Source of the DNA: a virus
Strand: one strand, 5' to 3'
Virus record (IMG/VR): IMGVR_UViG_3300021963_000034
Location: 1 to 64,000 of that record
Length of the DNA: 64,000 nucleotides
The first letter of the stretch is position 1; each line of letters starts with the position of its first letter. The notes below the pieces were generated by a model. It did no database searches. It was not told the origin of the DNA and saw only the letters and a list, made by a program, of their open reading frames with translations. Below, piece after piece: positions 3,349 to 63,800 of the stretch. A program made the position numbers and the translations under genes.

Positions 3349-3422
3349 CGGGGTGTAGCGCAGTTTGGTAGCGCGGTTGCTTTGGGAGCAATAGGTCGCA
3401 GGTTCGAATCCTGTCACCCCGA
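3349..3422 (+). tRNA. trnP: tRNA-Pro(UGG)
   Basis: CGGGGTG/CACCCCG acceptor, loop TTTGGGA, GGTTCGAATCC. Confidence 0.95.
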
Positions 3423-4338: not shown

Positions 4339-4410
4339 GGGAGTATAGCTTAATGGTTAGAGCGGGCTCCTTATAAGGGCTTAGTCTGGGTTCAACTCCC
4401 AGTATTCCCA
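4339..4410 (+). tRNA. trnI: tRNA-Ile(UAU)
   Basis: GGGAGTA/TATTCCC acceptor; anticodon arm GGCTC-CTTATAA-GGGCT; GGTTCAACTCC. Confidence 0.9.
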
Positions 4411-4412
4411 TC

Positions 4413-4485
4413 GCTCCTTTAGCAATCTGGTGAATGCAGCGAACTCATAATTCGCCTGAGGCGTGTTCGATCCACGCAAGGAGCA
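4413..4485 (+). tRNA. trnM: tRNA-Met(CAU)
   Basis: GCTCCTT/AAGGAGC acceptor; GCGAA-CTCATAA-TTCGC; GTTCGATCC. Confidence 0.9.
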
Positions 4486-4486
4486 C

Positions 4487-4996: not shown

Positions 4997-5399
4997 ATAG
5001 ACACGGATGGTCTATAACAGCACTGGTCGGGAGCAAACCCCTTTATGTCAAAAACAAGTATCTTAAGATACATTGGAAACTCTCTCCTTATCGTTGGTTA
5101 TCAAATCATGTTATGGGGAGATTTCAAATATGGACTGCTAGTAAAGTTTATTGGTGGTGCTTTAACAATACCGTTTGCGATAAAACTAAAACTCTATGAT
5201 GTTTTAGTTTTATGTTTGTTCTTTTCTGTAAATGAATTAGCAAAATTATCGCAACTTTTCCTAGTTTCTTAAAACTAGGTGGTGGAGTCAAATGACCCTC
5301 GTTTGGTTTCTTGCTTTTCCATAAAAAAGCAAGTGGTGCGGATGGGACTCTCTCCCGCCTGGTTTCCAATTTCCAGTCAAAGAATTGGTGGCGAGCCTG
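4997..5399 (+). ncRNA. cyanophage structured RNA of manA/wcaG type, with ORF 5045-5272 lying inside it
   Basis: Hairpin ATAGAC/GTCTAT then TGGTCGGG..CCC (4997-5041); three stem-loop modules each followed by TGGYG (CTAG/CTAG, CTTGC/GCAAG, CCAATT/AATTGG; 5258-5399); near tRNAs and upstream of sugar-nucleotide genes, the context described for these motifs. Exact family uncertain. Confidence 0.65.
5045..5272 (+). CDS. small multi-TM membrane protein
   Basis: ORF track; three hydrophobic segments. Confidence 0.7.
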   Translation: MSKTSILRYIGNSLLIVGYQIMLWGDFKYGLLVKFIGGALTIPFAIKLKLYDVLVLCLFFSVNELAKLSQLFLVS

Positions 5400-5408
5400 A
5401 ATACTATA

Positions 5409-61448: not shown

Positions 61449-62483
61449 ATGTCAAGTTCAAGCGATTTTGAATTAATTCATGGACAACTTCATGTTTGTG
61501 ATCGGGTTAATGATAAACCTTTAACCCCGGAAGCATTAGGTAGAGGTACTTGCAATATTAGAGGTGCTGCCTATTTTCAGTCTCCCACAATTTTGGGAAA
61601 TGATAAGACCTTTGATGCGACTGAAGCGACCGTTATGATAGGTCCTTTGAAAAATTTAGATGCACCTTTTCCTATTGTTTGTGGAAACTTGGAATTCATA
61701 GACAAATGGGAAATTAGTCCCTGCTCAAACGTCGGAGTTGGGAAGGGAATGGAAAAAGGTAAAGAACTTTTGAATCCATATTCTTTAGTTGTTCGTAAAG
61801 GACGACCAATAGTAGAGGGTCCAGAATGTTGTGCTCCAAAATGCGAAGGTCCTAGAAAAGGTCCAGCTGCCGCGATGTTTATTGGTGATGTTGATTTTTA
61901 TGAGAACGTAAGAATTAAAGAAAAATTATCTGTTGTTGATAAAGCAGATTTTTATGATGATATTGTAGTTAGGCAAAATGTCATTACTGGTAAAAATGGA
62001 TGTTTTGGTGGAACTCTAGATGGTACTCCGACAGGAAGATTACTTGCGAGAATTGAAGTAGCAGATGCTAGACCAAAACCATTTGATATGGTTCATCCAT
62101 CACTTGGGAAAGGTCATCGTCTTCGTTATGCTTGTATTGAGGGCCCTGAAGTTGGTGTATATTTTAGAGGTAGAGTAACGAATAAAACTGAGATTGAACT
62201 TCCCTGGTATTGGAAGGACTTGGTGCATACTAGAAGTATTTCTGTTCAACTTCAACCAATAGGATCTCATCAAGATATTATTGTAAAAAGATGGGACGAT
62301 CAAAAAATATATCTTCAGTCAAAGAGTGGAATTCCTATTGATTGTTTTTATCATGTCTATGCAGAAAGGAAAGATGTTAATGCACTTGTTGTTGAATATG
62401 ATGGCAACGAATGGAGTGATTATCCTGATAAAGATTATAACGATCCTCAATATGCGAATAAGGTAAACACTAAGACGTTGTGA
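61449..62483 (+). CDS. virion structural protein with a C-terminal chaperone-like domain
   Basis: KPFDM.HP...RLRYACIEGPE.GVY.RG, Y.VYAERKD. Confidence 0.6.
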   Translation: MSSSSDFELIHGQLHVCDRVNDKPLTPEALGRGTCNIRGAAYFQSPTILGNDKTFDATEATVMIGPLKNLDAPFPIVCGNLEFIDKWEISPCSNVGVGKGMEKGKELLNPYSLVVRKGRPIVEGPECCAPKCEGPRKGPAAAMFIGDVDFYENVRIKEKLSVVDKADFYDDIVVRQNVITGKNGCFGGTLDGTPTGRLLARIEVADARPKPFDMVHPSLGKGHRLRYACIEGPEVGVYFRGRVTNKTEIELPWYWKDLVHTRSISVQLQPIGSHQDIIVKRWDDQKIYLQSKSGIPIDCFYHVYAERKDVNALVVEYDGNEWSDYPDKDYNDPQYANKVNTKTL

Positions 62484-63046
62484 AAAGATTGATTTATATT
62501 GAGGAAAATTTTTTAGACGCAGTAGCGTGTAAATCGTTTATAGATTTTGCTATTGAAAATAAGGATAAAGAATTGCCATATGGTAATGAAAGTAGAGGTG
62601 GAGATACTTTTATTACTAATTTAGATTGTGGTGGTAACCTTTATCAAGGAGGAGTGCCTGATTGTATAGACTTAAATGGTGTAAAAAATCCAATAATTTC
62701 TTCAATTACAAAAATTTGCAAGTCTTTTGATGAAAATATTAAATTAGACTATGCGACGATCGTGAGATGGCCTGAAGGAACTTTTATGAAACCTCATTAT
62801 GATAACTCCTATCAAGATAATCCTGATGTTTTTGCTGCTCTAGTGTACCTAAATGATTCTTATAGTGGTGGATATACTTGCTTTGAGGACTTTGAAGTGA
62901 AACCACAATTAGGAAAACTAGTTATATTTTCCAACTCCCAATATCTTCATCATGTTACAAAAGTTGAGGACAGCGAAAGATTTGTTCTTTCCCTCTGGTA
63001 CAGTGGGTTGACACGGACCCTTGACCGTGCTATGATACATGGGTAA
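62480..63046 (+). CDS. 2OG-Fe(II) oxygenase
   Basis: PHYD, YLND.Y.GG, HHVTKV..ERF. Confidence 0.88.
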   Translation: MKRLIYIEENFLDAVACKSFIDFAIENKDKELPYGNESRGGDTFITNLDCGGNLYQGGVPDCIDLNGVKNPIISSITKICKSFDENIKLDYATIVRWPEGTFMKPHYDNSYQDNPDVFAALVYLNDSYSGGYTCFEDFEVKPQLGKLVIFSNSQYLHHVTKVEDSERFVLSLWYSGLTRTLDRAMIHG

Positions 63047-63307: not shown

Positions 63308-63511
63308 ATGGTTTATAAAATTTCATACAAAGACCTCAAAGAGGAACCAGTCAAAACCACTCCCGAAAATGTAAAAGAGTCAAATGAAGCACTCTTTACA
63401 GCAAAGTGGAATCTCCCTAAAGCAGCAAAGCACTGTGGAATGTCACAAAAAGAAATGAAGTTGACATTCTGGGAATATATCAAGTATAATCCTAGTACTT
63501 ACCAAGCGTAA
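63308..63511 (+). CDS. hypothetical protein
   Basis: ORF track; WNLPKAAKHCGM. Confidence 0.75.
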   Translation: MVYKISYKDLKEEPVKTTPENVKESNEALFTAKWNLPKAAKHCGMSQKEMKLTFWEYIKYNPSTYQA

Positions 63512-63518
63512 GTTTTTT

Positions 63519-63800
63519 GCGAGTATGGTGGAATCGGTAGACACACCAGACTTATGAAAATTGAGCCTCATTTAGGAAACTTTATGAGTGTAATTCCTCA
63601 AATTCGGTGAAACCTGTAAAATGGCAATACCGAGCCAAGCATCGCAAGATGAAGGTGTAGAGACTAGACGGGGAACACCTAAACCAAAAGGTATGGTGAA
63701 GGTATAGTCCAGACCACAAACCGAAAGGGTAGTGAAAACTATAGTGGTACGAAAATCTGTTGGGCGTATGCCCGTGGGAGTTCAAGTCTCCCTACTCGCA
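63519..63800 (+). tRNA. trnL: tRNA-Leu(UAA), split by an intron (exons 63519-63553 and 63752-63800)
   Basis: GCGAGTA/TACTCGC acceptor; joining exons restores CAGA-CTTAAAA-TCTG, a variable arm and GTTCAAGTC. Confidence 0.93.
63554..63751 (+). mobile_element. group I intron (IC3-like, 198 nt, no ORF)
   Basis: Follows exon U, ends in G; core AAATTCGGTGAAACC, GGCAATACCGAGCCAAG, GTAGAGACTAGACGG, GAAGGTATAGTCC. Confidence 0.92.

Follow-up and report, generated by a model that had tools for sequence, protein, structure and literature searches.

A 198-nt group I intron splits a tRNA-Leu(UAA) gene in a cyanomyovirus-like phage genome

According to a 2014 review, all phage group I introns then known lay in protein genes, despite the many tRNA genes that phages carry (PMC3984707), and a 2019 paper stated that phage tRNA introns had not previously been reported (PMC6784885). 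The locus described here raises the question of whether the insert interrupting a phage tRNA-Leu gene is a genuine ribozyme and, if so, where it came from and what maintains it. The insert lies close to the end of the stretch of DNA that we analysed (the window), which is the first 64 kb (positions 1 to 64,000) of a 153.6-kb IMG/VR record, IMGVR_UViG_3300021963_000034, estimated to be ~72% complete. An earlier note, made from the letters alone, had taken this DNA for phage, and the record proved to be cyanomyovirus-like. The window has a GC content of 36.3% and bears several hallmarks of a cyanophage. At the DNA level the neighbouring genes weakly resemble those of Synechococcus and Prochlorococcus myoviruses, and two RNA families were matched elsewhere in it:

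5302-5402: wcaG RNA, 101.9 bits
32023-32117: PhotoRC-II RNA, 79.4 bits, directly upstream of a psbA-like (D1) ORF at ~32163-33236

Gene structure and fold of the intron

The tRNA-Leu(UAA) gene occupies positions 63519-63800 on the plus strand, is the sole gene for this tRNA seen in the 64-kb window, and is interrupted by a group I intron that starts directly 3' of U34 and ends in G:

63461-63490, plus strand: promoter-like TTGACA-18-TATAAT, matching the consensus at 12 of 12 positions, located within the 3' end of the preceding ORF and 28 nt ahead of the tRNA
63519-63553, plus strand: 5' exon with acceptor arm, D arm, 5' half of the anticodon stem and C32 U33 U34, from ARAGORN on the joined exons
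63554-63751, plus strand: group I intron, IC3-like, at the 'Leu.3Ug' site, 198 nt and ORF-less, from RF00028, covariation and its precise absence at an orthologous locus (L301)
63752-63800, plus strand: 3' exon with A35 A36, 3' anticodon stem, long variable arm, T arm, acceptor strand and discriminator A

In its default mode ARAGORN missed the split gene, and with the -i option it called, on the unspliced gene, a tRNA-Tyr(ata) with a 196-nt intron forced to the canonical 37/38 site. This call was dropped because its split lacks U-1, whereas the split at U34|A35 yields Leu(UAA) and is the only one to do so with both U-1 and a terminal G, the combination that defines class 'Leu.3Ug'. When joined, the two exons are recognised by ARAGORN as a normal 84-nt class II tRNA-Leu(UAA). 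CCA is not encoded in the 3' exon, and the 5' exon is 91–94% identical to the intron-less tRNA-Leu of Synechococcus phages S-TIM5, S-CAM4 and ACG-2014j/e/i. The Rfam group I model RF00028 matches positions 63544-63733 over its full length (1-253) with 62.9 bits against a gathering score of 50 (E 1e-15). No plus-strand ORF of at least 40 aa was found inside the intron, and a 67-aa TTG ORF that overlaps it on the minus strand had no Pfam or PHROG family match. At the DNA level, the boundaries are confirmed by the orthologous IMG/VR locus L301, whose flanking genes are 93% and 81% identical to those of the window and from which exactly the 198 nt are missing. The feature is a genuine 198-nt group I intron splitting a phage tRNA-Leu(UAA) gene. 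The earlier note had described an intact, ORF-less group I intron of this length, with terminal G, at the U34|A35 site of trnL; its coordinates were exact, and both the RF00028 match and the covariation described next bear it out.

The P1–P9 structure was drawn by hand and tested on an alignment of 51 distinct viral pre-tRNAs (alignment A1). Its elements, all on the plus strand, are:

63550-63566, plus strand: P1, in which exon A-C-U-U and the first intron A (63550-63554) pair with the internal guide UGAG(C) (63562-63566)
63567-63588, plus strand: P2 hairpin capped by a GAAA tetraloop (L2), its 7 inner pairs all changed on both sides, recovered by the minimum free energy (MFE) fold
63594-63599, plus strand: P3 5' strand UUCCUC, pairing with 63670-63675 in 6 pairs, 100% paired, 4 compensatory
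63603-63655, plus strand: P4-P5-P6 domain, with P4 of 6 bp, P5 of 2–3 bp with a 6–8-nt loop, and P6 with a GCAA loop
63660-63666, plus strand: P7 5' strand (G, bulged A, GACUA) of the guanosine-binding helix, pairing with 63705-63710, all 6 pairs invariant
63670-63675, plus strand: P3 3' strand GGGGAA, covarying in the 51 sequences
63676-63698, plus strand: P8 hairpin, CCUAAA / UAUGG, 7 pairs of which 6 are compensatory
63705-63710, plus strand: P7 3' strand UAGUCC, pairing invariant in the 51 sequences
63714-63747, plus strand: P9 three-way element of P9 (CCAC/GUGG), P9a (GAAA loop) and P9b (UAGU-GAAA-ACUA)
63751, plus strand: omega-G, the last intron base, invariant in the 51 sequences and in agreement with the deletion boundary at L301

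Across the 51 relatives 91.8% of the paired cells hold a pair, compared with 31–42% when the partners are slid, and double-sided changes occur in 42 of the 71 pairs; none of 500 shuffles reached these values. Compensatory changes are present in P2, P3, P5, P6, P8 and P9b and therefore argue for selection on the fold of the intron, while P7, the base of P6, the U-1·G pair and the 3'-terminal omega-G are invariant. A P3–P8 pseudoknot, a P7 with a bulged base and a P4–P6 domain, with compensatory changes in P3, P4, P5, P6 and P8 and an invariant P7, make up the core expected of a group I intron, and an unconstrained MFE fold independently recovers the P2–P9b hairpins (z = -2.33). In P1 the wobble pair U63553·G63563 marks the 5' splice site, and its pairs are kept almost without exception (C-G in 51/51, U-A in 50/51 and U·G in 51/51). 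P4 is 99% paired, the inner pair of P5 alternates between C-G and G-C (28:20), and all four pairs of P9b are compensatory and 100% paired. Among IC3 features, GAAA tetraloops are found in L2, L9a and L9b, and the P8 motif is similar to the 11-nt GAAA-tetraloop receptor, into which L2 would dock by analogy with the Azoarcus architecture; a receptor motif in P5 is doubtful because this helix has only ~2–3 bp.

A decaying, inactive intron in a dead tRNA gene would account for the minimal P5, for an A·C mismatch at position 32 in the P1 extension and for a C·U mismatch at the top of the anticodon stem. The C·U mismatch, however, is shared with abundant intron-less alleles, and decay is hard to reconcile with compensatory changes over 51 sequences, with invariant catalytic strands, with a circular RNA from a relative (see below) or with UUA being a major codon of the phage; we regard it as extremely improbable. 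Over 41 long ORFs of the window, UUA accounts for 27.8% and UUG for 12.3% of leucine codons, together 40%. UUA is rare in GC-rich picocyanobacteria, and the phage therefore probably needs its tRNA-Leu(UAA). The element at 63461-63490 is a putative sigma-70-like promoter on the strength of its motifs; in relatives a TATAAT lies ~12 nt before the tRNA. Two genes upstream of the tRNA is a gene of the 2OG-Fe(II) oxygenase family (PF13640, E 5e-13; window 62480-63046, L001:437-1003).

Relatives in viruses and bacteria

A 21-nt stretch of the intron core recurs in more than 119 IMG/VR contigs. Among the matches listed, 87 contigs besides that of the window carry an intron-split tRNA across this core, mostly in tRNA arrays, and in 69 of the 87 the gene is a tRNA(UAA) split at U34|A35 by an intron of 183–230 nt. 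A further 32 IMG/VR loci (e.g., L004, L005, L006, L008, L010 and L022) have the same 21-nt core and no split tRNA by ARAGORN; these could represent introns of protein genes or of tmRNA, or else lie in tRNAs truncated where a contig stops. The earlier note had placed the intron among the smallest natural group I introns, a claim that does not survive this comparison: the 70 viral tRNA-Leu introns listed are most often 198 nt long (18 cases including that of the window), 9 of the 70 are shorter, at 183–197 nt, and the approximate minimum lengths given by ARAGORN over all tRNA types are 180 nt for viral and 190 nt for bacterial loci.

The same core is found in at least 120 bacterial genomes, the matches listed being an arbitrary sample of bacteria and coming from Proteobacteria, Acidobacteriota, Chloroflexota, Bacteroidota and Saccharibacteria. 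tRNA-Leu(UAA) is the host gene in 61 of the bacterial cases listed and the others are Met/Ile(CAU) and Arg(CCU), a distribution that fits the survey of bacterial tRNA introns by Williams 2020 (bioRxiv 10.1101/2020.01.27.920355), in which no phages were examined. With the bacterial 'Leu.3Ug' introns, the class of the classical cyanobacterial and plastid trnL intron (IC3), the phage intron shares the insertion site (CUU/AAAA), U-1, the terminal G, the helices and the lack of an ORF. It differs from them in residing in a phage genome, in being 71–73% identical to the best bacterial introns sampled, and in its length, 198 nt against a bacterial median of 230 nt.

An intron phylogeny, which the earlier note had proposed as a check, was calculated with FastTree from 201 viral and bacterial introns, no cyanobacterial trnL intron being among them. 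In this sample the window intron falls in a clade of 25 rows with 98% support, all of them viral, and 31 viral rows are nearer to it than any bacterial row. The all-viral clade is clear, but 92 of the 198 forks of the tree are open, including those that would place this clade relative to the introns of bacterial tRNAs for Leu, Ile, Met and Arg. The tree also bears on whether the intron is an ordinary cyanobacterial trnL(UAA) intron acquired from the host together with the tRNA gene. The insertion site U34|A35 and the tRNA isoacceptor are the same in both, and among bacteria the frequency of tRNA introns is highest in cyanobacteria (bioRxiv 10.1101/2020.01.27.920355). Yet neither a cyanobacterium nor a record named Azoarcus is among the 120 genome matches listed for the 21-nt core, phages that share these exons are for the most part intron-less, and the clade is virus-only in the 201-intron tree, which has no cyanobacterial rows. 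Moreover, the picocyanobacterial (Synechococcus/Prochlorococcus) clade is treated as being without a trnL intron (PMC5029880, main text and S1 Results), which argues against a simple host copy. We therefore judge acquisition from the host to be very unlikely, although the lineage may go back to an older cyanobacterial source.

The structure was also compared with that of L248, a 205-nt intron in a tRNA(CAU) that was reached via the family of a Propionivibrio match and that we take to be an Azoarcus-type intron from its length, its tRNA setting and its BH72 ribozyme motifs. The two introns have an identical 24-nt block covering J6/7-P7-P3 and near-identical P3, P4, P7 and P8 strands, and both are compact anticodon-loop introns of IC3-like architecture with a GAAA loop in L2 and a receptor-like motif in P8. 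Their overall identity, by contrast, is just 58.7%. The tRNA differs (CAU in L248, UAA in the phage), as does the site of insertion (after position 36 in the Azoarcus type, after position 34 in the phage); P5 and P6 are much shorter in the phage intron, and its P9 is longer and branched, with two GAAA hairpins. The resemblance to the ~205-nt Azoarcus tRNA-Ile ribozyme that the earlier note had pointed out therefore holds for the core and not for closest kinship, since bacterial and viral tRNA-Leu introns are nearer to the phage intron, with 71–98% identity. The phage ribozyme represents a compact natural variant of the well-studied Azoarcus model, with a minimal P5 and an elaborated P9.

Presence, absence and exchange between tRNA bodies

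Intron-bearing and intron-less forms of the gene exist side by side. The exact 5' exon-intron junction is present in 47 IMG/VR contigs and the intron-less junction of the same exons in at least 120, and many isolated Synechococcus phages possess the same tRNA-Leu without the intron. A marine metagenome (X1) contains both the intron-bearing form and one or more contigs in which the 5' exon is joined to 63752. This joint, 63553 to 63752, was considered as evidence of splicing and rejected: it comes from a DNA run, with a side of 28 nt, and represents the intron-less allele instead.

The intron is also found in more than one kind of tRNA. Within the 25-row clade its host is a class II tRNA-Leu body in some loci and a 73-nt class I tRNA in others, in both cases with the anticodon UAA and at the same array position. 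The split class I genes are:

L026:2742-3013, split 73-nt class I tRNA(UAA)
L064:11077-11347, split 73-nt class I tRNA(UAA)
L097:2838-3108, minus strand, split 73-nt class I tRNA(UAA)
L056:2788-3060, split 73-nt class I tRNA(UAA)
L039:1303-1577, split 73-nt class I tRNA(UAA)

In these five loci the intron is 89–97.5% identical to that of the window. The class I tRNA has no long variable arm and follows tRNA-Ile(UAU) and tRNA-Met, a position taken in other phages by the class II tRNA-Leu; a further tRNA-Leu(UAA) was not found in the examined segments of these loci, and a search for the donor of the class I body among 407 viral tRNAs gave a best match of 69%. The intron tree requires at least three switches between the two tRNA bodies, and therefore frequent recombination of the intron relative to its exons. 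The earlier note had suggested that phages may shuttle tRNA introns; restriction to viruses in our sample, variable presence and occurrence in at least two tRNA bodies agree with this as regards phages, whereas transfer from phage to bacterium found no such backing. In a more speculative version, to which we give limited credence, phages would be the main home of the intron lineage, which would move without an endonuclease between phages and between tRNA bodies offering CUU|AAAA, by recombination or reverse splicing, entering the 73-nt class I tRNA repeatedly, and its excised circle would persist in natural communities. If so, phages would be a vector spreading tRNA introns across bacterial phyla. 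The sharp pattern of presence and absence, with the same intron in different tRNA bodies, offers a tractable system for studying how endonuclease-less introns spread. As to the arrays themselves, in relatives such as L007 the Ile, Met and Leu tRNAs are adjacent; the window has four more tRNAs at 135-220, 3349-3422 and 4339-4486, for Ser(UGA), Pro(UGG), Ile(UAU) and Met(CAU), and its tRNA-Leu is 59 kb from those for Ile and Met.

A free-standing endonuclease gene lies ~350 nt downstream of the split tRNA, beyond the window:

Record positions 64155-64511 (L001:2112-2468): HNH endonuclease gene, phrog_2255, E 5e-32

It sits on a 388-nt insertion that is absent from the otherwise syntenic loci L014, L038, L101 and L037, which bear the same intron (97.5–98% identical), and only weak homologues, with identities of 28–36%, occur in a few other loci. 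We rejected it as an obligate homing partner, since a gene missing from the closest intron-bearing relatives cannot be in obligate partnership with the intron. Of the two marks of a mobile intron, an endonuclease ORF inside it or a conserved partner gene beside it, neither was found. The situation resembles that of the cyanophage psbA intron (Zeng, Bonocora & Shub 2009, as cited in PMC3037559), which is likewise an ORF-less group I intron of a cyanomyovirus with a free-standing endonuclease nearby. According to that citation, however, the psbA intron interrupts a protein gene whereas ours is in a tRNA gene, and the HNH gene of the window record is missing from the closest relatives.

The nearby HNH gene also bears on whether the intron is kept as protection, either by interrupting the DNA target of tRNA-Leu-cutting endonucleases in mixed infections or by delaying exposure of the anticodon to anticodon nucleases. 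Endonucleases aimed at tRNA anticodon regions, and free-standing ones at cyanophage psbA intron sites, are cited in PMC3984707 and PMC3037559, and phage tRNAs have been proposed as a counter to anticodon nucleases (PMC10264068). Against a protective role, the HNH insertion is lacking from the four loci with the same intron, intron-less alleles of the tRNA form the majority, and after splicing the anticodon loop of the tRNA is an ordinary one and exposed. The proposal in the earlier note that the intron hides the anticodon site from nucleases gains no support on the last two counts, and we consider protection in either form unlikely. The feature is very probably a functional group I intron of the bacterial tRNA type that lacks an ORF and splices itself, carried by viruses as a near-neutral selfish passenger and not copied from a host.

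Traces in RNA and in deposited phage genomes

Six riverine metatranscriptome runs contain about the intron's share of sequence words. In one of them (X16) a 225-nt contig with a depth of 52 begins and ends with the same 30 nt, the pattern that a circular unitig gives, and therefore represents a circular RNA of 195 nt. Its order is 63600-63721, then 30 nt of an L039-like P9 region, then 63557-63629, so that the circle joins the 3' tail of the intron of a close relative, not of the window phage itself, to its 5' region. Compared with L039, the nearest DNA relative, the junction lacks 2–3 nt of the intron's 5' end and 3 nt of its 3' end, and when aligned to L039 it does not match a simple attack by the terminal G. 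The Azoarcus intron, of 205 nt, self-splices and circularises with the loss of a few 5' nucleotides (PMC13168695), and a circle is thus common to it and to a relative of the phage intron. The 195-nt RNA hints at a catalytically active intron, the activity being that of a relative and not of the window gene. The spliced exon junction was in no RNA contig, and in three RNA runs the exons were without cover.

We tentatively propose the following course of splicing, which follows standard group I chemistry. The pre-tRNA would probably be transcribed from its own sigma-70-like promoter. C-U-U of the anticodon loop and the first intron base would pair with the internal guide UGAG, with the U·G wobble setting the 5' splice site, which free guanosine bound in P7 would attack. 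The terminal G (63751) would then occupy the guanosine site, and the freed 3'-OH of U34 would attack the 3' splice site. The product would be an 84-nt tRNA that reads UUA and UUG, 40% of the phage's leucine codons, and the excised intron would be released and able to circularise. In evolutionary terms, the near-neutral selfish passenger that we favour would be gained or lost precisely and would recombine among co-infecting phages without an endonuclease of its own.

The kind of ribozyme and its chemistry are known. What is notable is that it resides in a phage tRNA gene and belongs to a virus-borne lineage that is both widespread and polymorphic; the searched literature yielded no account of group I introns in the tRNA genes of phages. 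The 'enigmatic' tRNA introns of Lak megaphages (Devoto 2019, PMC6784885) are also located in phage tRNA genes, but are short non-group I inserts, whereas the window intron is a full ribozyme. The arrangement is common in uncultured phages, judging by the more than 119 IMG/VR contigs with the core, and it is present, unannotated, in a cultured one. This is the jumbo Agrobacterium phage Atu_ph07 (MF403008.1), in which a group I-like intron of 278 nt splits a tRNA-Leu(UAA) (L274:483-844). Other deposited genomes add to this: a 205-nt intron interrupts a tRNA-Leu(UAA) of the huge phage LR756501, Microcoleus phage My-WqHQDG carries an annotated 'tRNA-Arg' of 286 nt, and Pelagibacter phage HTVC120P (MH598807.1) has a stretch 75% identical to the intron core between two capsid CDS (L275:1164-1354), which from its similarity is probably a group I intron that interrupts a protein gene and was missed in annotation.

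At E 0.001, RF00028 found nothing in the deposited phage loci L002, L273, L274 and L275. We read this silence as a limit of sensitivity and not as absence, because ARAGORN -i and BLAST show intron-split tRNAs in the first three and, by BLAST similarity alone, the core in L275. The seeds of RF00028 are said to contain no bacterial sequence (Williams 2020, bioRxiv 10.1101/2020.01.27.920355), so that such introns are easily overlooked. With tRNA finders skipping or mislabelling the split genes and Rfam missing close relatives, phage tRNA repertoires, and the codon-usage arguments built on them, are therefore incomplete. In Atu_ph07, a CDS annotated as 'hypothetical protein' runs across the 3' exon of the tRNA-Leu.
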